Below the pieces are notes generated by a model. The model was not told the origin of the DNA and made no database searches. It worked only from the letters and a program-made list of their open reading frames with translations. Positions 2,498-62,930 of a DNA stretch of 64,000 nucleotides are shown one piece after another. The stretch covers positions 81,339 through 145,338 of the forward strand of contig CAKZPI010000021.1 in the NCBI GenBank assembly GCA_937139155.1. The letters run 5' to 3'. The DNA comes from an uncultured Flavobacteriales bacterium (lineage in GTDB: Bacteria > Bacteroidota > Bacteroidia > Flavobacteriales > JBLHRE01). Made by a program: the position numbers and the translations under genes. How positions within the stretch are numbered: position 1 is the stretch's first letter; every line of letters begins with the position of its first letter.

Positions 2498-4987
2498 ATG
2501 AACCACCTAGCAAAACTTCTCGTCTTTTTGCCTCTATTGTCTTTGGGGCAGTTTCCTGTGATCGATTCTTTTCAGGACGGAAATTTTCACCTCAATCCTA
2601 AGTGGGTTGGAGATTCCGCTTTTTTTGAAGTGGAGGAAGAAGAACTTAAGCTTAAAGGACCCAGTCAATCCGATAGCTTGGGTTTATTTACAGCTTTTAA
2701 TCCTGCGGATAGCCTGATTGAGTGGAGGTTTAAGATGCGACTTTCCTTTTCCCCTTCTCAGAACAATCAGGCTTACTTTTTTCTCTGGACCAACGGAGAA
2801 AAAAATGAAAATTTTGAAGGCATTTTCCTCCGTTTAGGAAATTCTGGCTCGCCCGATGTATGGAATTTGGTGCATCAAACCGGTTTCTCACAAGAAATTT
2901 TAGGTTCTGGTCAAAAAAATTTCCCAAATTCTTCAGGACAAATCTTCCAAAGTAAAATAACCTATAAATCAGGGATTTGGACTGTTTTTTTTGATGCTTT
3001 TGGAGGGCCTTATTTTCAAGAGGAAATAAAAATTTCAAAAAATTTTCAATTTTCTTTTGGATTTTTAGGATGGGTTTGTAAATTTAGTCCCAGTAATGCA
3101 AACGCATTTTCACTCGATGAAGTTTACGCAGGTAAAATAATCGAGGATAATGAGCCACCGATCTTTGAACACATTACTTCGTTTCAAGATTCAATTCGAA
3201 TCAAAGTAAACGAACCCATTGACACCACCCGGTATCCAATCATTTTATGGAACCAAGATACGCTAGAGCTGATTCTGCGTACACGGGAAATCATTGCAAA
3301 ACATTACTCGGGGGTAGAATGGCCAGGTCTTATGCGGGTGGTTCTTTTATATGACTTGGCCGCGAATTCTACCCCCTTCTTTGATTCTCTTCTCACCCCC
3401 GAAAATCCGAAACAACATAGCCTCCTCTTTACTGAGGCCATGATTGATCCTTATCCTACCGTAGGTCTTCCAAACCAAGAATACCTTGAAATAACCAATA
3501 ACTCACCCCAAGATTTGAATCTCAAATGGTTCACCCTCGAGGTCAACCAAAAGAGAATCCCCCTCCCTGATTTTGACCTTTCTGTGGGGGAAAGCATTTG
3601 CTTAAATGAAGGTCTATTCCTCCAAAGCGATTCAATTTTTCTTAACCTTGATTACCTTCCTAGCCTGACCAATGATGAGCTGAGTTTAGGACTTTATTGG
3701 AACGATTTCCCCATTCATCAAGTTCATTTTAAAGCTTCTGATTTTGAAGATGAACCAAAGTCTATGGGAGGCTGGTCCCTGGAAATTCCAAGCTTGAACC
3801 AGGCTTGTGTACAAGGTTTTGATTGGGAGTTTTCAAATCAACCCACCGGTGGAAGCCCAGGTTTTCTAGATCCTCACCCTTTTAAAGACTCCGATCAAAG
3901 CCTTAAAATAAGGTCCTTTTCCATTGATTCAAACCGCACCATTCAGCTTGGGTTTAACCAGTATCTTGAATACTACTCACTTGATAAACTTGAGCTCCGA
4001 ATAAGCCCAAGTATACATCTTGAAAAGACATTTCCTCAAAATCCAAAGGGTGAAGTACGCTTACGCTTTGGCCAGGATTTTGATCCAAATCAAACGTATC
4101 AACTTGAAATCTTTCATGCGAAATCTTGCCAAGGGTCCGGTTTAGATACCCTGATTGTCTTCACCTTGCCTCAAACCCCAAAGTATGGTGATTTAAGAAT
4201 TGTAGAGGTAATGATAGAGCCCAACGAAGACCAGGCTGAATTTCTGGAAATTCACAATCGTAGTACTTTTAGTTTTGACCTGAGCGAATTGAGAATTTCA
4301 GTAAGCTCTGATTCAGAAGCATCGAATTTCTTTGAAGAGATTACATCAAAATCCTATTTAATAAACCCAGGAGACCTTGTTCTCATTTCTGAAGAGAAAA
4401 TGCCTTTGGCCTGTGAAACCGGACTCGGTTATGAAGTAAATCTGCCTGCCCTGTCAAATTCAGGGGTTAAGATTGTTTTGGGAAATCAGTATTGGGAAGA
4501 AATTGATGAAATTTGGGTTGAACCTAGCTTTCATCATCCATACCTTTCCGATTCAAAGGGGCGAAGTTTCATTCGACTGGGTGAGGAGGGGGAGAACCCT
4601 GAAAACTGGCAAACTTGTTTAACGGAGCAGGGATTTAGTCCGGGCTGCAAGGATGGAAGTCCAAGTCAAACTTTCCTGGGTGAATTTCATTTGGAACCAG
4701 AGTATATAAGCCCGAATCTTGACGGGTTTCAAGATTATTCCATTTTATATTATGAGTTTCCGGAGGAGGGATACTTAATGGATATTAGCGTTTGGAATCT
4801 TTCTGGGCAATGGGTTTCCTCACCCGTTCAATCTAAACTTTGCCCTCAACGAGGAGAAATTTCAATTACCGGAACCGGTGAGTCGGGACAAATTTTACCC
4901 TTCGGAAATTATATTCTACTCATACACGCAGAACATAAATCCGGCGAAAGCCTAAGCAGAAAATTACCCTTGATTATTGGTCCATGA
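2498..4987 (+). CDS. secreted protein with two lamin-tail-domain-like segments and an FlgD-Ig/CHU_C-like C-terminus
   Basis: 829 aa with signal peptide MNHLAKLLVFLPLLSLGQ. Two LTD-like stretches are present (NQEYLEITNNSPQDLNLKWFTLE and AEFLEIHNRSTFSFDLSELRI). The C-terminus has ISPNLDGFQDY...ISVWNLSGQWV...GNYILLIHAE, which resembles PNGDG-type Ig-like sorting or adhesion domains. Confidence 0.6.
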   Translation: MNHLAKLLVFLPLLSLGQFPVIDSFQDGNFHLNPKWVGDSAFFEVEEEELKLKGPSQSDSLGLFTAFNPADSLIEWRFKMRLSFSPSQNNQAYFFLWTNGEKNENFEGIFLRLGNSGSPDVWNLVHQTGFSQEILGSGQKNFPNSSGQIFQSKITYKSGIWTVFFDAFGGPYFQEEIKISKNFQFSFGFLGWVCKFSPSNANAFSLDEVYAGKIIEDNEPPIFEHITSFQDSIRIKVNEPIDTTRYPIILWNQDTLELILRTREIIAKHYSGVEWPGLMRVVLLYDLAANSTPFFDSLLTPENPKQHSLLFTEAMIDPYPTVGLPNQEYLEITNNSPQDLNLKWFTLEVNQKRIPLPDFDLSVGESICLNEGLFLQSDSIFLNLDYLPSLTNDELSLGLYWNDFPIHQVHFKASDFEDEPKSMGGWSLEIPSLNQACVQGFDWEFSNQPTGGSPGFLDPHPFKDSDQSLKIRSFSIDSNRTIQLGFNQYLEYYSLDKLELRISPSIHLEKTFPQNPKGEVRLRFGQDFDPNQTYQLEIFHAKSCQGSGLDTLIVFTLPQTPKYGDLRIVEVMIEPNEDQAEFLEIHNRSTFSFDLSELRISVSSDSEASNFFEEITSKSYLINPGDLVLISEEKMPLACETGLGYEVNLPALSNSGVKIVLGNQYWEEIDEIWVEPSFHHPYLSDSKGRSFIRLGEEGENPENWQTCLTEQGFSPGCKDGSPSQTFLGEFHLEPEYISPNLDGFQDYSILYYEFPEEGYLMDISVWNLSGQWVSSPVQSKLCPQRGEISITGTGESGQILPFGNYILLIHAEHKSGESLSRKLPLIIGP

Positions 4988-28519: not shown

Positions 28520-28578
28520 GCCATCCCCTGAAACCGATTGAAACCTTACCTTTGCCGCCTAATTTTCAAATGGGTTTC

Positions 28579-31365
28579 ATGGAGCTTGACTTTCAGAAAA
28601 TAGATAAAAACTGGCAATCGTACTGGAAAGAAAAAGAGGTTTTTAAGGCCTCTAACCAAAGCGATAAACCTAAGTACTATGTGCTTGATATGTTTCCTTA
28701 CCCCTCTGGGGCGGGATTGCATGTGGGCCATCCCTTAGGCTATATTGCTTCTGATATTTACGCCAGATTTAAAAGACATAAAGGGTTTAATGTATTACAC
28801 CCCATGGGGTTTGATGCCTTTGGCTTGCCTGCCGAGCAATATGCCATTCAAACCGGTCAACATCCTGCAATAACTACCCAGGATAATCTTACCCGATACA
28901 AGGCTCAAATGAACCAACTTGGATTTAGTTTTGACTGGAGCAGAGAGGTGCAAACCTGTGATCCGAATTACTACCGTTGGACCCAATGGATATTCCTTCA
29001 GCTATTCAATGCCTGGTATGATGAAGCCCAGAACAAGGCACGTCCTATTCAAGATTTAATCGAGCATTTCGAGGCTCATGGAACTCAGGGCTTAAGAGCT
29101 AGTCAAGGGGAAGAAATCCATTTTTCAGCTGAAGAATGGAAGGCCTTCTCAGAAGCAGAAAAAGCAGAGAGGCTTTTGAATTTTAGATTGGCTTATCGGT
29201 CTGAATCCATGGTGAACTGGTGTCCGGCTCTGGGTACTGTTCTTGCCAATGATGAGGTAAAAGACGGGCTTTCTGAACGAGGAGGGCATCCGGTGATTCA
29301 GAAAAAAATGATGCAGTGGAGCTTGAGAATCTCGGCATACGCTCAGAGGCTATTAGATGGTCTGAATGAAATCGATTGGTCTGATGCCTTGAAAGAATCA
29401 CAAAAAAACTGGATTGGTCGATCGGAAGGTGCTTCCGTTCAATTCCAAATCAAGGGGCATGATAAGAAGCTTGAGATATTCACCACACGTCCAGATACCA
29501 TTTTTGGAAGTAGTTTCATGGTTATGGCTCCTGAGCATCCTTGGGTGGGTGAAATCACTAGTGAAGCTCAAAAAAAGGAGGTAGAAGCCTACCAAACCGA
29601 GGCTGCAAAAAGGTCTGAACGTGACCGGATGGCAGATACCAAGTCTGTGACCGGGGCTTTCACGGGGGCTTATGCCTCCCATCCTTTCACGGGCAAGGAG
29701 ATACCGATTTACATCGCGGATTACGTGCTTGCCAATTATGGAACTGGAGCCGTTATGGCTGTACCTGGGCATGATTCAAGAGATTATGCTTTTGCTCGAA
29801 AATTTGACCTACCCATATTGGAGGTGGTTGAAGGAGGAAACCTGGAAGAGGCCGCATATGAGGCAAAATCAGGCAACTTGGTGAATTCTGATTTCATCTC
29901 CGGAATGAAGGTGGAAGAAGGTATTCAAAAGGTCATCCAAGAGCTGGAGAAAAGAAATCTCGGCAAAGGAGAAATCAACTACCGACTTAGAGACGCTGTT
30001 TTTGGAAGGCAAAGGTATTGGGGTGAACCCATCCCCATTTATTTCGAAAACGGCATTCCGAAACCAGTTAAGGATTCACACTTGCCCTTGGAGCTACCTG
30101 AAGTAGATAAATACTTACCTACCGAAGATGGAGAGCCTCCATTGGCCCGTGCTGAGAAATGGTATTACCACCCCGATAAAGGCTTGGTGAATCAAGAAGA
30201 AGGGTTTCCATTGGAAACTACAACCATGCCTGGATGGGCAGGTTCCTCTTGGTATTGGCTAAGGTATATGGATGCTGGAAATTCAGATGAATTTTTGAAT
30301 CCTGAAATAGAATCGTATTGGAATTCGGTGGACCTATACATAGGTGGGGCTGAACATGCTACTGGGCATTTACTTTACAGCCGTTTCTGGCAAAAAGCTT
30401 TGAAAGACCTTGGTTTCCTTTCGGCCGAAGAGCCTTTCAAAAAACTGGTAAACCAAGGAATGATTCAAGGGCAATCAAGTTTTGTTTACCGATTGAAAAA
30501 CGAGAATACCTTTGTTTCACACGGACTGATAGACAAATACGAAACCATTGCCATCCACGCTGATGTTTCAATGGTACATCAGGATGTTTTGGATCTAGAA
30601 GCCTTCAAAGCATGGAGAGAAGATTTCAAAGACGCCAAATTTATTTTAGAAGACGGAAAATACATCTGTGGCTCTGAGGTTGAGAAAATGTCTAAGTCGA
30701 AATTCAATGTGGTAACCCCGGATGAAATCATTGAGAAGTTTGGGGCAGACACCCTGAGAATGTATGAAATGTTCTTAGGCCCTCTTGAGCAACATAAACC
30801 TTGGAATACCCATGGAATCACAGGGGTTCATGGGTTTTTGAAGAAGTTTTGGAAGCTTTATTTTGACGAGAAGGGCCTAAGGGTTCAAAACTCGAAACCT
30901 AGTAAGGAGGCTTTGAAAGCTTTGCATACCCTTTTGAAAAAGGTGAACGAAGATTTTGAAAATCTTTCCTTCAATACATCGGTTTCGGCCTTTATGATTT
31001 GTGTTAACGAGCTTTCTAAATTAAAGATAGACTCTAGAGAAATTCTAGAGCCTTTGGTGGTAGCACTTTCCCCCTTTGCCCCTCATATTTCAGAAGAGAT
31101 ATGGAAAAACTTGGGCCATGATGGAGGGATTTCCTTTGAAGCATATCCCCAAGCTGAAGAAGCTTTTTTGATTGAGTCAAGCCATGAGTACCCGGTGAGT
31201 TTCAACGGAAAAATGAGGTTTAAAAAATCCTTTGGCTTAGACCTTTCTAAGGATGAAATTGAGAAGGCAATTTTGGTCGATGAACAAAGTCAGAAATACC
31301 TTGAGGGGAAAACCCCAAAGAAGGTAATTGTGGTTCCGAAGCGGATCATCAATATTGTGGTTTAA
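28579..31365 (+). CDS. leuS: leucine--tRNA ligase
   Basis: I placed the start at the ATG at 28579 ([16 protein letters not shown], the typical LeuS N-terminus). The HIGH motif is HVGHPLGY and the KMSKS motif is KMSKSK. About 928 aa. Confidence 0.96.
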
Positions 31366-32153
31366 GCAATTTCCTCCTCCAATTTTTCAAGGAGTGAATC
31401 TAGTTTACTCAGGTCTTTCACCCGCTTGAGTTTATAAACCGGAATGGAATTTACAAGATGCCCAACCTGTAAAAAGGTCTGGGCTTCTTTTTTTCCATGT
31501 AGATAGAAAAGAGGTTTTACCTGGGCCAAAAGACTTTGAAAAGCATCTTGTCCGGTGAGCTTTTCAATTCCTGCCTCTTCCGCAAAATCAAGAATGAATA
31601 AGGCCGAAAGTGGTCCGGGTGGATTTTTATCTACCTCAAGATCTAGGCTGTACTTATCGTGGTCTGGATGAATTTGAGTTTTTTCTTCCTCAGGGTTTCC
31701 GAAGTAATCAAGGGCGTCTCCCCAAAGCCTCATTTGGGCCAGTCCTGGAAGAAGTTCATTTGAGGAGTGCACATCTTTGAAGGCAATGAAATCGTCAGAA
31801 ATCAAATCATGTCCTCTTCTCATCATGGCTTTTGCTGTGGTTGACTTCCCCATTCCGCTAAAGCCAAGGAACCCTATAATTTTCCCATTTACTTTTAGGC
31901 AAGAACCGTGAAGTACAAGATGCCCCCTCATGAAGAGTTGAGTGGTATATGGCGAACCAGAAGCGTAGACCGCAACTCGTTTAGGGTCAACGCCCTTTTC
32001 AGGAAGGGTGTCCATTTTACCTCCCTCATAAATAATGAACCTACCAACGTCTTCCCAAAACAATTCAATCCGGTTTTCAAAGACCTGGAAAAAAGAGCCT
32101 TCCCTAATTGGGGTTTCAGAGGTTTTCAAATCGGACGATTTCATGGTATTCAT
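31362..32153 (-). CDS. HPr-kinase-like (HprK-related) kinase
   Basis: 263 aa. [41 protein letters not shown] matches the HprK C-terminal-domain P-loop pattern (G.SG.GKS...RGH.L..DD). The start overlaps the B2-like gene by 38 nt. Confidence 0.75.
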
Positions 32154-32580
32154 TTAAATCGGGTAAGTTACCCAGTAAAATTTCATCCTTTTTCAAGAGC
32201 CAGGCATGTGCCTTAAATTCTTCATGATCCTTTCTTACCCCAATAACCACCGAGGTTTTAATTCCTTGTAATTTGCATTGCATATGTCCGGAAAGCGCTT
32301 GATACAAACAGGGGCGACCCGCAGGGGCAAAGTATTTACAGGCCCGTTTATTGGCCAAAACCAATTGGTCAAGACTGAAATCTTCATCCTTTTTTCGAGA
32401 ATCAAGTTCAGTTTTGAACCATTCTTTAAATTCTGGAAAGGACTTTTTCTTGAGCTCTTTTCTAAGAATCATCACATCGTAAAACGCCTTGTGAAAGGCC
32501 CTTCTTTCCTTCCCTCTTAATTGCAGGTATTTAATTAGGGGAAACACAGGCAACCAGTCCTTCTTTTTCCAAATCCGCAA
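32116..32580 (-). CDS. lasso-peptide B2-like transglutaminase-fold cysteine protease
   Basis: 154 aa. The Cys (GRPCLYQALS, C91) ... His (KAHAWLL, H125) ... Asp (KKDEIL, D132) spacing matches McjB-C-terminal/B2-type proteins. It overlaps the PqqD gene by 50 nt. Confidence 0.75.
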   Translation of the reverse strand: MRIWKKKDWLPVFPLIKYLQLRGKERRAFHKAFYDVMILRKELKKKSFPEFKEWFKTELDSRKKDEDFSLDQLVLANKRACKYFAPAGRPCLYQALSGHMQCKLQGIKTSVVIGVRKDHEEFKAHAWLLKKDEILLGNLPDLNEYHEIVRFENL

Positions 32581-32812
32581 TCAATTCTTTAAGGTCTTGG
32601 GCAGCAGTTTCCTTTTCTACATCAAATTCTGAGGTAATTTTATCGATCAGGTCCTCCAAGGTTTTCTCCTCTTGTATTAAGTCCCATATAAAACTACCAA
32701 CCTCATTTAATGTATAGTAAATGCCTGTTTCTGTGTGGAGTATGGCTTTCTCGCCTTGAATATCACAATGAACTTGTTCACTGCTTTGCTTAACTTTCAA
32801 CTTCAAATTCAT
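32531..32812 (-). CDS. PqqD family protein (RiPP recognition element, lasso B1-like)
   Basis: 93 aa. GIYYTLNEVGSFIWDLIQEEKTLEDLIDKI...AQDLKELIADLEKEGLV is the canonical PqqD/RRE pattern. The ATG overlaps the upstream stop (ATGA). Confidence 0.8.
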   Translation of the reverse strand: MNLKLKVKQSSEQVHCDIQGEKAILHTETGIYYTLNEVGSFIWDLIQEEKTLEDLIDKITSEFDVEKETAAQDLKELIADLEKEGLVACVSPN

Positions 32813-33348
32813 CTTGGGTGTCTATTTGGCTGGAAAGATGCCATTATTTTTTGATGCGTAAAAAGAGATTTCTGCAAATTGTTTTCCAGCGAGAGCCAAA
32901 GGATTAACCCATATTCACTGAGGTAGAAAAAATGGTCGTGGAAGAATTCAAAAACCGATTGAAACTCAAGCCAAATCCAGCTTAAGCTGACCAACCTAAG
33001 CGCTTGAAATAGGAATAGTAGTACGATGCCAAAGCTTATTTTACCAAGGTAGGAAGTTAAAGAGCTTGAGAGAATGATGCTCAAACCAAGGAAAAGGGAG
33101 AGGGCTTTCCATCCGGTACAAGAGAAAACAATTTCAAGACATGGGGTTTCATTTATAATGACCCATGAATTATGAATTTGGTAATCAGAACTGAGAAAGA
33201 AAAGGCTTAAAATCCAGGCTGTAGTTTTGCCCCAAAACTGAATTAGTAATTCTTGAAACCCAGGAATTTTAGGAGGAAGAAAGGCCAATGCCAGAAAGGT
33301 GAATAGGCCAAGGTTAAGCTTTATCAGGAAAAGTTTTAGGTGGTTCAT
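32809..33348 (-). CDS. exosortase/archaeosortase-like polytopic membrane protein
   Basis: 179 aa from the ATG at 33348; the track ORF starts at TTG 33381. About 5-6 TM. Numbering from 33381: LEIVFSCTGWKALSLFL (C88) resembles the exosortase CSGlrsl motif, then ALRLVSL (R129, 41 aa later), then EFFHDHFFY (H148/H150). This is the Cys/Arg/His order and spacing of the family. Assignment is from motif reading only. Confidence 0.6.
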   Translation of the reverse strand: MNHLKLFLIKLNLGLFTFLALAFLPPKIPGFQELLIQFWGKTTAWILSLFFLSSDYQIHNSWVIINETPCLEIVFSCTGWKALSLFLGLSIILSSSLTSYLGKISFGIVLLFLFQALRLVSLSWIWLEFQSVFEFFHDHFFYLSEYGLILWLSLENNLQKSLFTHQKIMASFQPNRHPR

Positions 33349-33427
33349 ACCTCGAATATCGGAAATTTTTAAAACTTGCAATCCTTGCCTGAAATTATAA
33401 TACTTTAGCAGATTAAATCAGAGAACT

Positions 33428-34303
33428 ATGGCATTTTCAATTGAGCGGCTCAACCGTAGAAGGCTAAGAACCTCTTACATTTCTGTGATCATAAGTCTGT
33501 CTTTGGTTCTTTTTACCTTGGGTTTATTGGGTCTTTTGATTTTAAACGCCAAGCACCTTTCAGATCAGGTAAGGGAAGATTTTGCCATGACCTTAATTCT
33601 TGATCCGGATGCGAAGGAGGTTGAGGTTAGGGAGTTTCAAAAAGGCTTAGAAGTGGCTGAATATGTGAAAGGCACTGAATATATATCAAAGGAAGAGGCT
33701 GCTGAAGACTTGGCCAATGAATTGGATGAGAATTTTGTTGAATTTTTAGGCTTTAATCCACTTTCAGATGCCATTGAAGTTCATTTCCGCGCAGACTATA
33801 CCCATCCAGATAGTTTGAGCTTGGTTGAAACCGAATTGAGAAAACAAGGGGTAATCAAGGATGTGGTTTATGACAAGCCACTTTTGGAAATGATGAACGA
33901 AAACATCCGCAAAATTTCCATTGGAATTTTAGGAGTAAGCCTTCTTTTGGTCATCATTGCTTTCGGTTTGATCAATTCCTCAATTCGCCTGGCAATTTAT
34001 TCCAAGCGGTTTTTAATAAAGACCATGCAATTGGTTGGTGCTACCAAACGTTTCATCCGGAAACCCTTCTTGGGAAGGAGTGTTCGACATGGATTTATAA
34101 GCGCCGTGGTTGCTGTAGGTTTGATTTATGGAATGCTTCAATTGGTGGAGACCAACTTTCCGGAAGTTGCTGTTTTAAAAGATTATAAAATCATGGGCAT
34201 AATGGCAGGAGGTCTTGTAGTAGCCGGAATTTTCATTTCGTACTTTTGCACCTTCTTAGCGGTTAAGAGATACCTGAACTTACGTACTGATCAACTCTAT
34301 TGA
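33428..34303 (+). CDS. ftsX: cell division protein FtsX
   Basis: 291 aa with an N-terminal TM, a periplasmic domain and 3 C-terminal TM. The conserved stretch is MQLVGATKRFIRKPF. Confidence 0.88.
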   Translation: MAFSIERLNRRRLRTSYISVIISLSLVLFTLGLLGLLILNAKHLSDQVREDFAMTLILDPDAKEVEVREFQKGLEVAEYVKGTEYISKEEAAEDLANELDENFVEFLGFNPLSDAIEVHFRADYTHPDSLSLVETELRKQGVIKDVVYDKPLLEMMNENIRKISIGILGVSLLLVIIAFGLINSSIRLAIYSKRFLIKTMQLVGATKRFIRKPFLGRSVRHGFISAVVAVGLIYGMLQLVETNFPEVAVLKDYKIMGIMAGGLVVAGIFISYFCTFLAVKRYLNLRTDQLY

Positions 34304-34304
34304 G

Positions 34305-34535
34305 ATGGAAGAAAACAAAGGATTTATATTCGAGAGAATCAATTATATCATACTCGCCGTAGGCGTTGTAGTCATGGCCCTTGGCTTTGCTTTGATGGTA
34401 GGAGGAGCAAGCGAAGACCCCAATGTATTTAATCCGGAGGTTTATAGCTTTCGAAGAATTACCTTGGCCCCCATTGTAATTGTTTTGGGCCTTGGCATTG
34501 AGCTTCTGGCCATTATGTACCGTCCGAAAAAATAA
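34305..34535 (+). CDS. DUF3098-like small membrane protein
   Basis: 76 aa with two TM. It is the conserved partner directly downstream of ftsX in Bacteroidota. Confidence 0.7.
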   Translation: MEENKGFIFERINYIILAVGVVVMALGFALMVGGASEDPNVFNPEVYSFRRITLAPIVIVLGLGIELLAIMYRPKK

Positions 34536-35329: not shown

Positions 35330-36051
35330 TGCAGGAGGTTAATCCAGATAATCCCTACCGGAAAGGACAGGTTTTATTGTTTGATAAACCTGAAACCTGG
35401 ACTAGCTTTCAGGTGGTGAAGCTTGTTAAAACCCGCCTTAAATACGATTGTGGTTTAAAGAAAATCAAGGTTGGGCATGCCGGTACTTTAGATCCTTTGG
35501 CTACGGGACTCCTCATAGTATGCACCGGTAAGAAAACCAAGGAAATTCAAGACTTCATGGGTCAGGAAAAGGTGTATGAAGGATCTTTGGTTTTAGGAGC
35601 CACCCGACCCTCAGTAGATCGAGAAACCGAAATAGATCAAGAATTTCCAGTTGATCATATTGGTTCGGAAATGATTGAGAAGGTTCGTCAGAGTTTTCTG
35701 GGCGAAACCGATCAATTTCCACCTTCTTTTTCCGCGGTTAAAAAAGACGGGAAAAGAGCCTATGAATTGGCTCGGGAAGGGAAGGAGGTTGACCTGAAGT
35801 CGAGGAAGGTTGTTATCAAAGAGTTTGGAATTTGCCCCATGGGAAACAACGAATACGCTTTTCGAGTGGTTTGTTCGAAAGGAACCTATATCCGAAGCTT
35901 AGTGCGTGATTTCGGAGAAAAATTAAACTCCGGAGCATGGATGAATACTCTTCGGCGCACAGGCATTGGATCCTACTCGGTTCAAGATGCCATTCACCCC
36001 AAAAGTTTTGCGCCCAGCAATGATCAAGGCGCTTCCTCTTCAGTAGAATAA
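35329..36051 (+). CDS. truB: tRNA pseudouridine(55) synthase
   Basis: 240 aa. The catalytic motif is GHAGTLDPLATGLL. Confidence 0.93.
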   Translation: MQEVNPDNPYRKGQVLLFDKPETWTSFQVVKLVKTRLKYDCGLKKIKVGHAGTLDPLATGLLIVCTGKKTKEIQDFMGQEKVYEGSLVLGATRPSVDRETEIDQEFPVDHIGSEMIEKVRQSFLGETDQFPPSFSAVKKDGKRAYELAREGKEVDLKSRKVVIKEFGICPMGNNEYAFRVVCSKGTYIRSLVRDFGEKLNSGAWMNTLRRTGIGSYSVQDAIHPKSFAPSNDQGASSSVE

Positions 36052-37256
36052 TGCTGGCTATAAGGGATGACCGCAGGGTTACCTAAGAAGCCTAATTCGT
36101 CTAAAAGGGTTGTAATTAAAGGCCGGTAAAAATGGAAGAAGAACCTACTTCGATCAAGAGGTTCTGTTGTATACAGCAGGAAGTCTAAATAATGGATTCC
36201 TTTAAAATAAGAAGCTGAATAAGGAACCAGATTATCCGCATAATCCGCGCAGAAATACCAGGTTAATCCATCTCTAGACTTAATCAATGCAGGGAATGTG
36301 TTTTCAATTCCCATACTGGCCAAAAGGCTATCACCGCTGGGTAAAGTTTCAATTCTAAAAACACCCATGCTCTCAGCATCGGTGCCCGCTCTGGGGTAGG
36401 TAACATCAAACCAGAAGGGGTATGGAACCCTTTCTCTTGTACCGTAATGTTCTGAAAAAACGGTGTCAACCTCAATATGGGGCATGGGGTCTGAAACATG
36501 CACCTCTTCATCGAATACCTCGATCCGCTCCGATTCATGTACAAAGGCCAATCCAGGGCCTTCAAAGGGCCACCTTCCTCCATGTTGCTCTTTGTACCCT
36601 CGAATAAGCCATTTAGGAAGTTCGGGATTTTTGGTAGAGTCTAATTCGTCAAAAAACCGTCCGGTCCAGCCCGACCAGTTTACATTCAGCAATTCCTCAG
36701 CTCGTTGTCGTACGTATCCTCCAGTAGGTGAAGCAAAGGTGTTAAACTCACCCCACATGGGTTTCCCTTGGTCTACCACCCGTTCCATTACCCGTATTTC
36801 ATTCCGCTTTAAGCCACCATAAACAAGAGGTGAATGTTCAGTGAGCAAAGAATCTAAAATCCACTCGTTATAATACACCCCGTAGGTATCGGTGAGGTAG
36901 AGAAGCTCGGTGGTATCTGCAAGGGAGTCTAATTGGTTTCTACTGAAAAACCGCCAATCCCGAGCAATGGGTTTGGGGTGCTCTCTGGGGTCAAAACCGT
37001 AATAATCTTGATTGAAGATGTAATAGCGATTGCTATGATCTACCAATTTCTCATAATTGAGAATCCAGTGAAAAGCTATGTGTTCAAAATAATCTTCGCT
37101 CGGAACAGTTTTGTCAAGAATGGTAACATTGATGGGATGCTCATCACTGGTGGTCCACCAGATGTATGACCAAATGGGTGAGAAAACCAAGAAAAGGAAT
37201 AATACCCGTATAATGGCAAAAACGCCGATTTTCCGAAAGGGTCTGAACTTTTTCAT
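36024..37256 (-). CDS. membrane-anchored hypothetical protein
   Basis: 410 aa with an N-terminal TM anchor (IGVFAIIRVLFLFLVFSPIW) and a large Trp/Tyr-rich globular region. I do not recognise a family. It converges on truB with a 28-nt overlap. Confidence 0.5.
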   Translation of the reverse strand: MKKFRPFRKIGVFAIIRVLFLFLVFSPIWSYIWWTTSDEHPINVTILDKTVPSEDYFEHIAFHWILNYEKLVDHSNRYYIFNQDYYGFDPREHPKPIARDWRFFSRNQLDSLADTTELLYLTDTYGVYYNEWILDSLLTEHSPLVYGGLKRNEIRVMERVVDQGKPMWGEFNTFASPTGGYVRQRAEELLNVNWSGWTGRFFDELDSTKNPELPKWLIRGYKEQHGGRWPFEGPGLAFVHESERIEVFDEEVHVSDPMPHIEVDTVFSEHYGTRERVPYPFWFDVTYPRAGTDAESMGVFRIETLPSGDSLLASMGIENTFPALIKSRDGLTWYFCADYADNLVPYSASYFKGIHYLDFLLYTTEPLDRSRFFFHFYRPLITTLLDELGFLGNPAVIPYSQHYSTEEEAP

Positions 37257-58865: not shown

Positions 58866-61800
58866 ATGAAACTTAAAGCTACGCTTTTTAAGGGCTTTGC
58901 ATTATTTCTAATTTTAGGTTTATCGCAATCGGCTTTGGCCCAGACAACGGTAACCTCAACGGCTGATTCAGGCCCTGGATCCTTGAGAGAGGCCGTAGCA
59001 AATACTGCTGCTGGAGGAAGCATTTCCTTCTCTCCATTAACCGCTGGACAAACCATTACACTCAACTCAGAAATTCTTATTGATAAATCCCTGACCATTA
59101 CAGGGCTTGATACCCTTTTAACCACGGTAAGTGGAGGAAACAATGGAAGGGTATTCAAAATTTCACTGGCAGATTCAGTTTTCTTGAACAGCCTTTCCTT
59201 AGAAAATGGTCAGGCCGGAAATGGGGGCATCCTTCATACCTCAAGCACGAAACTTGTAATCAATTCAGCCTCAATACGTGGCGGACAAGCGGATACTTCT
59301 GGAGGAGCTATTTACAATGCTGGTGGACAACTGGAAGTTTCAAACTCCAACATTTATAATTCAACCGCAAATGGTTCAGCTCCAAACGAAGGAGGGGGAG
59401 GCATCGCGAATATTGCCGGAAACCTTGAACTGAACTCGGTAAACATTACCGGAAACTCTGCCACCAACGGTTCTGCCTCGGGTGGAGGAGTTCTTCACCT
59501 TTTAAGCGGCACGGCCAACATTAGTGGTGGAAGCATTTCAGGAAACTCTTCAGCCAGAGCAGGTGGTGGAATTGAGCTAAACGGTACCAGCATGAGCCTT
59601 ACCAATGTGAGCATGGCCAACAATTCAACAGGTCCGATGCCCGGTAACGGCGGTGCTGTTCATATTACCGGAAGCGGGAATCTTACCGTGAATGGCGGAA
59701 GCTTTACAAACAATACAGCAGACTCTGAAGGTGGTGGTCTCTGGAATGGGTCAGGGATTATGACCATTGACGGAGCAAATATTTCATCCAATACAGCCAG
59801 TGGAGATGGAGCCGATCAAGGAGGCGGAGGTATTTATAACCTCTCAGGCAGCCTGATGGTTTCAAACTCAAACATAAACAACAATACTGCTGATGGTTCA
59901 TCCGGTTCAGGCGGCGGAATACTCATTGATGCAGGTGCAGGAATGACCCTTTCAAATTCTTCCGTTTCCGGAAATACTGCAGTTCGTGCCGGGGGTGGAA
60001 TTGAAGACAATTCAGGAAGTGGCTCAACCCTCATTTTAACCAATGTAAACCTTGACAACAATGCCGTGGCATCCAATCCGGGCAATGGTGGCGGACTTCA
60101 TATCACAGGAAGTGGAAACCTCAGCTTTACCGGAGGAACAGCCAATAATAATACAGCTTCAGCCGAAGGTGGAGCCCTTTGGAACGGGGCTGGATTTATG
60201 ACCCTTGACTCACTCACCATTACGGGCAATACCGCAAGTGGAGATGCAGCAGACCAAGGGGGCGGCGGTGTTTATAATCTAAGCGGCGACCTGAGCATTT
60301 CAAATACAAGCATAGCAAACAATTCAGCCAACGGCCAAGCCGGTTCAGGTGGTGGAATCTTAAACGACCAAGGCGGGAATTTAAGCCTTACTGATGTTGA
60401 CCTTACCGGAAATACTGCCGTAAGAGCAGGAGGAGGTATTGAAGACGTTTCAGGCTCTTCCACAACCTTGGTTTTAACCAATGTGAGCTTCGATGGCAAT
60501 TCAGCGGCTTCAGCACCAGGTAACGGTGGGGCCCTTCACATTACAGGCGACGGTGATATCACCTTTACCGGGGGTTTTGTTGACAATAATACAGCAGCCT
60601 TTCAAGGCGGTGGACTCTGGAATGGATCGGGGTCTATGTTCATTGATGGTGTAGACTTCGACGGAAATATAGCTTCTGGAGATAGCAGTGCAACGGCCGG
60701 AGGAGGAGCCATTTACAACCTCTCCGGGTCTCTTACTATTTTAAATGCCAGTTTTGACAACAACCAGGCAAATGGTAGTCTTGGTTCAGGAGGAGCCATT
60801 CTCACAGATGCCAACACTGGACTTACCGTGTCAAATTCTAGCTTTAGTTTCAACTCCTCTGCCCGGGCCGGTGGAGCCATTGAAGACAATTCTGGAGACA
60901 GCAATAAGACGGTGCTTTCCAACCTGAGCTTCGATGGAAATTCAACAGCATCTAACCCAGGCAATGGTGGTGCAATTCACATTACTGGGAATGGTGACAT
61001 GGACATCGTGTCTTCTACCTTTACAAATAATACCGCTTCCGCGGAAGGAGGTGCCATTTGGAATGGATCGGGAGATATGAGCATTGATGCATCCATCCTT
61101 GACGGGAATACAGCCAGTGGCGACGGATCCGACCAAGGGGGTGGAGGTATTTACAACCTCAGCGGAAATTTATCCATCCAAGGAAATTCTCAAATCATAA
61201 ACAATTCAGCCGACGGTGCCTCCGGATCAGGAGGGGGAATTTTAAACGATGTAGGTGGAAGCCTCACGGTCTTAAATACTCGAATTTCAGGAAACTCTGC
61301 GGTTAGAGCTGGAGGAGGTATAGAAGACAATTCCGGTGCCCTTACCCTGGTATCTCTGAACGTTGTAGCCCTAGACTCAAATACAGCTTCAGCCTCTCCA
61401 GGAAATGGTGGAGGATTGCACATTACGGGGGCTGGTGACCTGTCCATGACCAATTCAACCGCCAAGGGAAATCAAGCTGCCTCAGAAGGAGGAGCCCTTT
61501 GGAATGGCACTGGGAATATGACTTTGGACAATTGTAATATTGCCAACAATACAGCCTCAGGAGACCTCGCAAACCAAGGAGGTGGAGGTATTTATGCCTT
61601 AGGCGGAACGGTAAGTATAAACCAATCAAATATTCAATTCAACATGGCTGATGGAACCGCTGGCTCTGGGGGTGGAATTTTAATTGACTCTTCAGCAGCC
61701 CTCACCATTACTTCAACGGCCATCAAAGGAAACTTTGCTTCTAGAGCTGGTGGAGGAATTGAAGACAATAGTGGAGCAGGAAGCATGACCAGCCTAAACT

Positions 61801-62930
61801 TGGTTTTCCTTGATTCCAATTCAACTGGATCTGCTCCAGGAAATGGAGGAGCCATCCATATTACTGGCAATGGAAGTTTAAGTTTTACATCCGGTACTGT
61901 TATTGGAAACACAGCCGGCAGTGAAGGAGGTGGTTTATGGAATGGTTCAGGAACCATGTCGCTTGCCAACCTTCGCATTGAAAACAATACAGCTGCCGGG
62001 GCTACCGCCCAAAACGGGGGTGGAGGACTCTACAACAACGGCGGAACCTTGGTAATTCTGGGTTCAAGCATTACCAATAACTCAAGTCTATCAGCCCTTG
62101 GCTCAGGTGGAGGAATTCACAATTCAGGCAACGGTGATTTATCCTTGGTTTCAGTAACGGTTTCTGGAAATGAAAGCCTGAACAATGGTGGGGGAATCCT
62201 GAATGAAGGAGACCTAAACCTTGAATCGGTGACCTTGGCGCAGAATACTGCGGGTAACCTTGGAGGAGGAATTGCCCAAACCTCAGCCGGAACCCATTTT
62301 GAAACCTGGAATTCAATTATTGCAGAAAATTTGGCTGCCAATGGAGGAAACGATGTTCGAATCTCCGCCGGTATTCAAACTTCTGCTGGATATAATTTAG
62401 TGGGTAACGACGATGTAGGGAATTTCGTAGGCCAGGCTTCCGACCAAATCGGAACCAATACCTCGCCCATCCTTCCATTGCTTGACTCACTTGCCCTGAA
62501 CATGGCCACTACAAAAACCCATGCCTTATTATGTGGTTCCTTGGCCATTGATGCGGGTGATCCAAACTTGGCAACCAACGACCAAAGAGATGAGGCCGTT
62601 TTTAATGGCAGAAAAGACATTGGTGCTTACGAGCGTCAAGATTCCTGCGCAAGCATTTCAATTGACCCGGAAGAGCAAGCGGCTTCCATTGCTGTATACC
62701 CAAATCCAGTGATTGATCAGCAGGTACAGGTTGAATTGCCTAGAAATTTATCGGCTCAAACGAGAGTATTGATAGTTGATCTTTCATCAGGAAGGGTAGT
62801 TCAGAGCATTGAATCTATGCAAGAAGGCGTAAATCTTATACAGCTTGAAAACCTAAGTTCAGGAAATTACGTTCTTCAAATCATAAGTACAGAATTCATT
62901 GAAAACCGTAAGATCACGGTGATTGAATAA
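58866..62930 (+). CDS. giant secreted right-handed beta-helix repeat protein with choice-of-anchor-Q-like region and T9SS C-terminal sorting domain
   Basis: 1354 aa with a signal peptide ...SQSALAQ. Dozens of GGGI/GGAI(Y/W)N coils (Pmp-like). CGSLAIDAGDPN...DQRDEAVFNGRKDIGAYE lies near the C-terminus. The last ~80 aa (VYPNPVIDQQVQVEL...GNYVLQIIS...KITVIE) match the Por/T9SS CTD pattern. Confidence 0.8.
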   Translation: MKLKATLFKGFALFLILGLSQSALAQTTVTSTADSGPGSLREAVANTAAGGSISFSPLTAGQTITLNSEILIDKSLTITGLDTLLTTVSGGNNGRVFKISLADSVFLNSLSLENGQAGNGGILHTSSTKLVINSASIRGGQADTSGGAIYNAGGQLEVSNSNIYNSTANGSAPNEGGGGIANIAGNLELNSVNITGNSATNGSASGGGVLHLLSGTANISGGSISGNSSARAGGGIELNGTSMSLTNVSMANNSTGPMPGNGGAVHITGSGNLTVNGGSFTNNTADSEGGGLWNGSGIMTIDGANISSNTASGDGADQGGGGIYNLSGSLMVSNSNINNNTADGSSGSGGGILIDAGAGMTLSNSSVSGNTAVRAGGGIEDNSGSGSTLILTNVNLDNNAVASNPGNGGGLHITGSGNLSFTGGTANNNTASAEGGALWNGAGFMTLDSLTITGNTASGDAADQGGGGVYNLSGDLSISNTSIANNSANGQAGSGGGILNDQGGNLSLTDVDLTGNTAVRAGGGIEDVSGSSTTLVLTNVSFDGNSAASAPGNGGALHITGDGDITFTGGFVDNNTAAFQGGGLWNGSGSMFIDGVDFDGNIASGDSSATAGGGAIYNLSGSLTILNASFDNNQANGSLGSGGAILTDANTGLTVSNSSFSFNSSARAGGAIEDNSGDSNKTVLSNLSFDGNSTASNPGNGGAIHITGNGDMDIVSSTFTNNTASAEGGAIWNGSGDMSIDASILDGNTASGDGSDQGGGGIYNLSGNLSIQGNSQIINNSADGASGSGGGILNDVGGSLTVLNTRISGNSAVRAGGGIEDNSGALTLVSLNVVALDSNTASASPGNGGGLHITGAGDLSMTNSTAKGNQAASEGGALWNGTGNMTLDNCNIANNTASGDLANQGGGGIYALGGTVSINQSNIQFNMADGTAGSGGGILIDSSAALTITSTAIKGNFASRAGGGIEDNSGAGSMTSLNLVFLDSNSTGSAPGNGGAIHITGNGSLSFTSGTVIGNTAGSEGGGLWNGSGTMSLANLRIENNTAAGATAQNGGGGLYNNGGTLVILGSSITNNSSLSALGSGGGIHNSGNGDLSLVSVTVSGNESLNNGGGILNEGDLNLESVTLAQNTAGNLGGGIAQTSAGTHFETWNSIIAENLAANGGNDVRISAGIQTSAGYNLVGNDDVGNFVGQASDQIGTNTSPILPLLDSLALNMATTKTHALLCGSLAIDAGDPNLATNDQRDEAVFNGRKDIGAYERQDSCASISIDPEEQAASIAVYPNPVIDQQVQVELPRNLSAQTRVLIVDLSSGRVVQSIESMQEGVNLIQLENLSSGNYVLQIISTEFIENRKITVIE
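59646..62280 (+). repeat. six tandem 438-441-bp super-repeats (146-147 aa each) within the beta-helix gene
   Basis: The landmark NGG(A/G)(V/L/I)HITG codon Asn recurs at 59646, 60084, 60522, 60963, 61404 and 61842. The periods are 438, 438, 441, 441 and 438 nt. The last unit is more diverged. Confidence 0.8.

Follow-up and report, generated by a model that had tools for sequence, protein, structure and literature searches.

A compact Bacteroidota cassette combining lasso-type maturation genes with a mini-exosortase-family gene

Lasso peptide clusters of the paeninodin/pseudomycoidin type combine a split B1/B2 pair with an HprK-like kinase and an asparagine-synthetase-like cyclase C, often accompanied by a nucleotidyltransferase and an ABC exporter. 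In characterised lasso systems, the HprK-like kinase phosphorylates the C-terminal serine of the linear precursor (PMC8498205). For exosortase-family enzymes the mechanistic paradigm is archaeosortase ArtA of Haloferax volcanii, in which a tripartite sorting signal is cleaved and a lipid is then attached. For the function of bacterial mini-exosortases, the only mutant phenotype found in the literature is that of XrtF in Flavobacterium johnsoniae, namely loss of surface colonisation and biofilm (PMC10936215). Here we describe a four-gene cassette in a 64,000-nucleotide stretch of contig CAKZPI010000021.1 from an uncultured Flavobacteriales bacterium (hereafter the window, to which all coordinates without a locus name refer). 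In this cassette, genes for a PqqD-family RiPP recognition element (RRE; RiPP, peptide made by ribosomes and modified after translation), a lasso B2-type protease and an HprK-type kinase follow a gene for a mini-exosortase-family membrane protein, and a lasso cyclase gene is missing.

The cassette is built of known parts in a new architecture and represents a chimera of a lasso-pathway front end and a mini-exosortase. We tentatively favour the reading that it is a selectively maintained operon of a small Bacteroidota clade, whose four products may form one functional module acting on an unlinked substrate.

A lasso-type trio without its cyclase

The three lasso-type proteins all passed the models of the families to which an earlier note on this DNA, made from the letters alone, had assigned them. 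The PqqD-family protein scored 77.9 bits against PF05402 (cutoff 23.4) and 73.1 bits against the lasso-specific model lasso_PqqD_Bac (NF033536), just under its cutoff of 80. The B2 protein scored 56.1 bits against lasso_biosyn_B2 (NF033537; cutoff 33) and 54.7 bits against Transglut_core3 (PF13471); its invariant residues are Cys80 and the His114 of an HAW motif, and six homologues keep the Asp that lies downstream. The kinase scored 37.7 bits against Hpr_kinase_C (PF07475; cutoff 33.3), aligned with the solved HprK structure 1ko7 over the P-loop (E 4e-5), and has a P-loop and an ISDD motif that are invariant in 10 homologues. It also gave a faint match to the Pfam ScmC family.

The nearest relatives of this trio are canonical paeninodin-type lasso clusters. 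The closest, L005, from a Sphingobacteriaceae metagenome-assembled genome, encodes PqqD, B2, a kinase, a 592-aa cyclase, a nucleotidyltransferase (NTP_transf_5) and a 38-aa precursor, MKKYNKPQIKKLGKFSKLVRGVGGTSMDAVTNTLLTIS, that terminates in Ser. Its kinase is 41% identical to that of the window; kinases of this cluster, the closest outside the window-type clade, are 33-42% identical to the members of that clade. A scan of GTDB representatives with the kinase alignment returned the L005 contig only. Nine independent canonical contexts could be compared, these being homologues with enough flanking sequence (L005, L010, L012, L013, L015/L016, L018, L026, L027 and L028); L010, L012, L013, L015/L016 and L018 come from metagenomes, and the plasmid loci from Azospirillum, Sulfitobacter and the archaeon Halopiger. 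In all nine, a cyclase lies adjacent to or within a few kb of the kinase or PqqD gene, and the nucleotidyltransferase is present in L005 and most of the other canonical loci. No exosortase hidden Markov model (HMM) matched in the lasso-type loci L005-L022, and the annotations of L026-L028 list no exosortase. The archaeal locus L028, on plasmid pHALXA01 of Halopiger xanaduensis (NC_015658.1 22874-27979), carries an apparently complete lasso-type set: genes for PqqD, B2, an asparagine synthase-like protein, a nucleotidyltransferase and an ABC transporter, together with an HprK-like kinase region whose annotation seems to consist of two short hypothetical proteins.

The window holds no such set. 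None of the ten large open reading frames (ORFs) scanned in it, which include UvrC, RNase R, ribonucleotide reductase, an AsmA-family protein, DnaG, MetG, a histidine kinase and a type IX secretion system (T9SS) cargo protein, encodes an Asn_synthase cyclase. A tblastn search with the L005 cyclase likewise gave nothing: the best E value was 0.46 over the 64 kb of the window, and 3.9 over 20 kb of L003, the scaffold that carries the second complete cassette. The absence of a cyclase from the window, which the earlier note had claimed, is thus borne out by both the ORF scan and tblastn. Its further claim that the membrane gene holds the operon slot of the cyclase fails on gene order: the cyclase gene follows the kinase gene in L005, and here the membrane gene lies upstream of PqqD. 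Neither a nucleotidyltransferase (NTP_transf_5) nor a SET protein of the L005 type was found by tblastn in the window or L003, and the cassette contains no ABC exporter.

Searches for a linked precursor were equally negative. A leader-motif scan for a lasso-type precursor (YxxPxL...G leader, ring-forming Asp/Glu at core position 7-9) was negative in both the window and L003; it picked up the genuine precursors of L005 and L009 and gave no false positives, and it is only partly sensitive, having missed precursors in several canonical loci. The L005 precursor had no tblastn homologue, an inventory of intergenic small ORFs yielded no plausible precursor, and the small ORFs co-conserved between the window and L003 were only alternate-frame shadows of known genes and a DUF3098 gene.

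These observations bear on an alternative in which the lasso pathway is an ordinary one that has been split: cyclase and precursor would be encoded elsewhere in the genome, the cassette would supply B1, B2 and kinase in trans, and the membrane protein would be an accessory (for export or immunity) or unrelated. The trio is indeed intact and of lasso type by score, its nearest relatives are true lasso clusters whose precursor has a C-terminal Ser, and the sequence inspected covers no more than 64 kb of the genome behind the window and 20 kb of that behind L003. We nevertheless consider a split pathway unlikely. The cyclase stays close to the kinase or PqqD gene in nine of nine canonical contexts, whereas none of the lineages observed in the window-type clade has one; the nucleotidyltransferase common to L005 and most canonical loci is gone as well; and an exosortase fold that conserves Cys, Arg and His corresponds to no known exporter or immunity protein. 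As to whether homologous cassettes always sit beside a cyclase, which would have marked this one as a decayed lasso cluster, the rule holds for the distant kinase homologues and breaks down for the window-type clade. Since that clade lacks the cyclase, unlike the distant homologues, the cassette does not appear to be simply a decayed cluster.

Lasso genes lacking a cyclase were encountered a second time, in an unrelated high-GC lasso-like cluster (L009:3121-10645; ENA ERZ25072468 contig_110), which encodes B2, PqqD, an HprK-like kinase, an ABC exporter and a convincing 57-aa precursor (…ATLTKGGGPVLLDAQGTQFGGGGFS, with a C-terminal Ser), with no cyclase within 8 kb on either side. In the middle of this cluster lies a gene for a 980-aa surface protein, an exosortase-type substrate; against the IPTL-CTERM sorting-signal model its tail scores 24.1 bits, above the cutoff of 20.5.

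The membrane protein and its mini-exosortase relatives

The membrane protein passed the exosortase/archaeosortase signature TIGR04178 with 35.0 bits (cutoff 23), and its L003 orthologue did so with 45.6. Against every exosortase subfamily model it fell below the cutoff; the best was XrtX (NF046081; 40.5 against 170), and scores were only 26.3 for XrtF (TIGR04128; cutoff 90) and 23.2 for the archaeosortase A model TIGR04125 (cutoff 75). For the L003 orthologue, XrtX and XrtF are the two best-scoring subfamilies (64.7 and 58.9, respectively). The Pfam exosortase model PF09721 did not match the window protein, although it matches 18 of the 19 relatives found by profile search. Across 27 relatives, the only invariant columns are C77, G107, R118, H137 and W151, and Cys77, Arg118 and His137 are the putative active-site residues. 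The spacing from Cys to Arg is 41 residues, equal to that of C173 and R214 in ArtA, both of which are required for catalysis (PMC9263693). The exosortase-like assignment in the earlier note stands, given the superfamily signature and the invariant Cys, Arg and His. Judged from its sequence, the protein is a divergent exosortase-family member that is nearest to the XrtX/XrtF mini-exosortases.

A structural model built with AlphaFold2 from the 27-sequence alignment reached a mean predicted local distance difference test (pLDDT) score of 79.7 and shows five helices and a small sheet; an earlier model from a two-sequence alignment (pLDDT 47) was unusable. Foldseek comparison of the better model with the PDB returned no solved structure with a matching fold (best E 3.5), and a PDB sequence search with the protein gave no match. 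An exhaustive HMMER pass over 1.84 billion representative sequences found 11 proteins at E <= 1e-3, of which all but the window protein and its L003 orthologue are XrtX/XrtF-like mini-exosortases. The subfamily has only two members in that collection, both of which are accompanied by the PqqD-B2-kinase trio. A word-indexed homologue search returned the protein's own cluster only, and neither a metagenome scan with the two-sequence alignment nor a plasmid search with the protein gave a match.

The surroundings of related mini-exosortases were inspected in Confluentibacter, in Mucilaginibacter and on one metagenome contig (L023-L025). In all three, a membrane partner of about 133 aa is encoded directly after the Xrt gene, and none of them has PqqD, B2 or kinase genes beside it. 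In two of the three (L024 and L025), a small PID-CTERM protein that passes NF046080 is encoded just before the Xrt gene; L023 carries instead a presumed substrate of 184 aa, rich in Asn and Gly, whose tripartite tail (…VPMNDHIGLLMLAGGSAAMLMMYKRKQK) is not recognised by the PID-CTERM model. The multi-transmembrane partner (L023:6548-6952, L024:6572-6976, L025:6518-6916) belongs to no Pfam family, and its L024 member has no NCBIfam match.

Neither of these companions was detected at the cassette: a scan for PID-CTERM-like motifs and a search with an HMM of the partner were both negative in the window and L003. Among real genes near the cassette, tripartite-like tails occur only in FtsX and a DUF3098 protein, which are both generally conserved. 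The latter (34305-34535, plus strand) has 76 aa and two transmembrane segments, adjoins ftsX, matches no NCBIfam model, and ends in a hydrophobic helix followed by RPKK, which superficially resembles a sorting tail. It was rejected as a candidate substrate, being a generally conserved ftsX neighbour that is 83% identical between the window and L003.

Gene arrangement and conservation of the cassette

The four genes lie on the minus strand as overlapping ORFs that span 31362-33381 (Table 1). Their coordinates are exactly those given in the earlier note, and the tight packing of overlapping frames agrees with its description of a single unit. It had listed overlaps of 4, 50 and 38 nt. The first, between the stop of the membrane gene and the start of PqqD (32809-32812, ATGA), and the last, between B2 and kinase (32116-32153), are as described; the overlap of 50 nt between PqqD and B2 is obtained only if TTG at 32580 is the start, whereas GTG at 32547, which is favoured by homologue alignment and by a 143-aa gene call on an identical metagenome contig, gives 17 nt. 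Both flanks were also correctly read: leuS (28552-31365, plus strand) converges on the kinase gene, the two stop codons sharing TTAA at 31362-31365 in a 4-nt overlap, and ftsX (33428-34303, plus strand, with FtsX_ECD and FtsX domains) diverges from the cassette, the start codons being 46-79 nt apart. The GC content is slightly lower over the cassette (0.38-0.42) than in the flanks (0.40-0.47). A promoter and terminator scan found sites no more frequently than in shuffled sequence, with a promoter model for sigma-70 that does not reach other promoter types, and Rfam and tRNA scans of the window gave no match.

Table 1. Features of the four-gene cassette (window coordinates)
Feature	Coordinates	Strand	Remarks
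Mini-exosortase-family membrane protein	32809..33348	-	179 aa from ATG at 33348; 190 aa if TTG at 33381 is the start
PqqD-family RiPP recognition element (lasso B1 type)	32531..32812	-	93 aa
Lasso B2-type transglutaminase-fold cysteine protease	32116..32547	-	143 aa from GTG at 32547; frame open from TTG at 32580 (154 aa)
HprK-type P-loop serine kinase, lasso-tailoring kind	31362..32153	-	263 aa
Short divergent intergenic region, common to cassette and ftsX	33349..33427	.	presumed to hold the cassette promoter

The 38-nt overlap of the B2 and kinase genes is kept exactly in three lineages that are about 55% identical (window 32116-32153, L003:10001-10038 and L021:422-459). Because of this exact conservation, one run of bases encodes, in two frames, the conserved C-terminus of B2 (…EY.E..RFE.L) and the likewise conserved N-terminus of the kinase.

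The window kinase has few relatives and forms one clade with P0003, P0004 and P0005, the members being 49-57% identical to each other. Co-occurrence of the four genes in other genomes, on which the earlier note had staked its proposal, was found in full once: L003, a 714-kb scaffold from a genome diverged at the genus level, carries the complete cassette beside ftsX-DUF3098-bacA-truB. The other two cases are partial. The short contig L021 carries the tail of PqqD, B2, the kinase and then a convergent metG, and the short contig L022 carries the tail of B2, the kinase and then non-coding sequence. The end of the latter, a 1-kb contig, resembles leftover sequencing adapter (L022:~940-1031; an assembly artefact by its translation), and nothing is readable there downstream of the kinase. 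In none of the four kinase lineages does a cyclase gene follow the kinase. What comes next is a convergent gene for an aminoacyl-tRNA synthetase, which is leuS in the window and metG in both L003 and L021, or else non-coding sequence. Since the far flank is metG in L003 and leuS in the window, a rearrangement breakpoint lies exactly at the end of the kinase gene, with the four-gene block intact. Collections totalling roughly 15 billion proteins yielded two complete and two partial lineages altogether.

PqqD is 59-61% identical between the window and L003, the kinase 53%, B2 46% and the membrane protein 28-30%, and neighbouring housekeeping genes are 60-69% identical. For the four genes pS is at least 0.78 and pN is 0.25-0.49, the two being compared in place of dN/dS since dS is saturated, and no ORF is broken. 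Because all ORFs and catalytic residues are intact in spite of saturated synonymous sites, the cassette appears to be under selection rather than a wreck. From this comparison, the cassette as a whole is under apparent long-term purifying selection, which is weakest on the membrane protein.

A precedent for decay does exist. In L007:3280-4738 (Logan SRR34065989_520), a close relative of L005, the cyclase and precursor have been deleted independently; the cyclase is reduced to a 28-aa stub whose first 15 residues still match, and PqqD, B2 (with a TTG start), kinase and nucleotidyltransferase are intact. The window cassette, which lacks the core biosynthetic enzyme and the substrate, could in principle be such a non-functional remnant, decaying after the same loss. 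This explanation is highly improbable and is largely refuted by the conservation pattern: with synonymous sites saturated, four ORFs have stayed open, pN has stayed at 0.25-0.49 and the catalytic residues have been kept, and four lineages of 49-57% identity keep the arrangement.

A different question is whether the membrane gene and the trio belong together at all. They might be two unrelated functions that are merely adjacent, namely an orphan mini-exosortase with unlinked sorting-signal substrates and a lasso-derived trio retained for some other purpose. Proteins related to the membrane protein function together with PID-CTERM proteins and the ~133-aa partner, and PqqD, B2 and a kinase are absent from the three contexts inspected; the synteny on the ftsX side is kept between the window and L003, so that the neighbours have possibly been inherited passively; and the membrane protein evolves at a rate very different from that of the trio. 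However, the genes share a strand, with a stop/start overlap of 4 nt in the window and 47 nt, as annotated, in L003. The four-gene block has survived the rearrangement that swapped leuS for metG, and this exosortase subfamily did not occur apart from the trio (both of its members among the 1.84 billion representatives are accompanied by it), the membrane protein having neither of its usual neighbours. On balance, we regard mere adjacency as improbable.

Other genes of the window were also noted. A 410-aa protein with an N-terminal transmembrane segment and no Pfam or NCBIfam match (36024-37256, minus strand) has a counterpart in L003 that is 66% identical and in the same position. Two further genes are unrelated to the cassette: one for a 1354-aa protein (58866-62930, plus strand) with a Chlam_PMP repeat match and a T9SS Por_Secre_tail C-terminal domain, and one for an 829-aa protein (2498-4987, plus strand) with a lamin-tail domain. 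A T9SS sorting domain is in keeping with an origin in Bacteroidota, to which related loci also point.

A proposed pathway and its place among described systems

Under the favoured reading of a single functional module, the cassette would have originated from a paeninodin/pseudomycoidin-type lasso cluster, of which B1 (the RRE), B2 (the leader protease) and the HprK-like Ser kinase were kept and the cyclase, linked precursor and nucleotidyltransferase were lost. A fast-evolving mini-exosortase of the XrtX/XrtF-like type would then have joined the trio through shared transcription and translational coupling. All four proteins may act on one substrate that is encoded elsewhere in the genome. First, the RRE would bind its N-terminal leader. 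Second, B2 would remove the leader. Third, the kinase would phosphorylate a Ser, probably at the C-terminus. Finally, the membrane Cys enzyme would cleave or transpeptidate the substrate at the membrane in the manner of an exosortase, and the outcome would be anchoring, release or cyclisation instead of lasso folding. We infer this order of RRE binding, B2 cleavage, phosphorylation and exosortase-type processing. The earlier note had likewise suggested that membrane transpeptidation would be coupled to proteolysis and phosphorylation under the guidance of a leader.

Several points weigh against a single module. Neither the 64 kb of the window nor the 20 kb of L003 yielded a substrate, and the same stretches of the two genomes are all that was inspected for an unlinked cyclase. 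As L007 illustrates, a lasso cluster can lose its cyclase and yet keep B1, B2, kinase and nucleotidyltransferase intact. Only two complete cassettes were seen, and between them the membrane protein has diverged far more quickly than the trio (28% identity against 46-59%). Since synteny between the window and L003 extends over the entire neighbourhood on the ftsX side, the conserved adjacency is weak evidence of functional coupling. ArtA, the best-studied member of its family, is described as cleaving the sorting signals of secreted cell-envelope proteins (PMC9263693). Because the RRE, B2 and the ATP-dependent kinase would be cytoplasmic and ArtA substrates are secreted, a pathway with a single substrate would need a particular ordering or topology.

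A stronger version of the proposal is that the mini-exosortase functionally replaces the ATP-dependent lasso cyclase: an unlinked precursor would be bound by the RRE, cleaved by B2, phosphorylated on Ser, and then cleaved and transpeptidated by the membrane Cys enzyme. We consider this replacement rather doubtful. If true, a macrocycle closed head to tail or through a side chain would be a conceivable product, as would a peptide anchored by lipid or glycan to the Bacteroidota envelope, and the cassette would provide the first link of RiPP leader-peptide logic with exosortase-type sorting.

RRE-dependent enzymes are a main route to new RiPP chemistry, and a conserved operon that joins both machineries with no lasso cyclase points to a new peptide-maturation chemistry or to a new way of feeding exosortase substrates. 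The compactness of the four-gene system makes an exosortase-family Cys/Arg/His site testable alongside well-understood partner enzymes. Rarity limits the ecological importance of the cassette but not its value as a mechanistic lead, and its composition should surprise a specialist in RiPPs or in protein sorting. There is no Pfam or NCBIfam family specific to the cassette, and a literature search found no paper that joins exosortases with lasso, RRE, PqqD or HprK machinery, and nothing relevant on XrtX or PID-CTERM. The statement in the earlier note that no characterised system with this composition is known was accordingly upheld, as neither a curated family nor a publication describing the combination was found.

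Compared to described systems, the cassette shares parts with four kinds and the composition of none. First, like the non-lasso pairs recorded in NCBIfam (HPr-rel-A, HprK-related kinase B and SynChlorMet), it pairs an RRE and a kinase of the HprK fold in a setting other than a canonical lasso cluster. However, the window proteins match these families only weakly and far below the cutoffs: 29.3 against 200 (TIGR04352) and 20.3 against 35 (TIGR04353) for HPr-rel-A, 36.1 against 200 for HprK-related kinase B (TIGR04355), and 38.5 against 100 for ScmC/ScmD of SynChlorMet (TIGR04249/TIGR04248). None of the kinase matches retrieved belongs to HPr-rel-A, and the literature search gave no paper on these pairs, which the earlier note tentatively places near proteobacterial exosortase loci. 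Second, like ArtA of H. volcanii, the membrane protein carries the TIGR04178 superfamily signature and the 41-residue Cys-Arg spacing. In contrast to the 179-aa bacterial protein, ArtA is archaeal, much larger (the TIGR04125 model has 271 positions) and acts on PGF-CTERM proteins; no association of ArtA with RRE, B2 or kinase genes was reported in the ArtA literature examined.

Third, the membrane protein resembles those of the XrtX (NF046081)/PID-CTERM (NF046080) system and of XrtF with its partner (Fjoh_1448/Fjoh_1449) in being small (about 175-190 aa), in having invariant Cys, Arg and His, and in occurring in Bacteroidota. Unlike these systems, the window has no PID-CTERM gene upstream and no gene for the ~133-aa partner downstream, and the PqqD-B2-kinase trio follows instead. 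Fourth, like the paeninodin/pseudomycoidin-type clusters, the window encodes a PqqD/RRE, a B2 protease with Cys-His-Asp and an HprK-type kinase. It differs from them in lacking the cyclase, linked precursor, nucleotidyltransferase and ABC exporter, in its gene order Xrt-B1-B2-K, in its overlapping reading frames, and in the addition of an exosortase-family gene.

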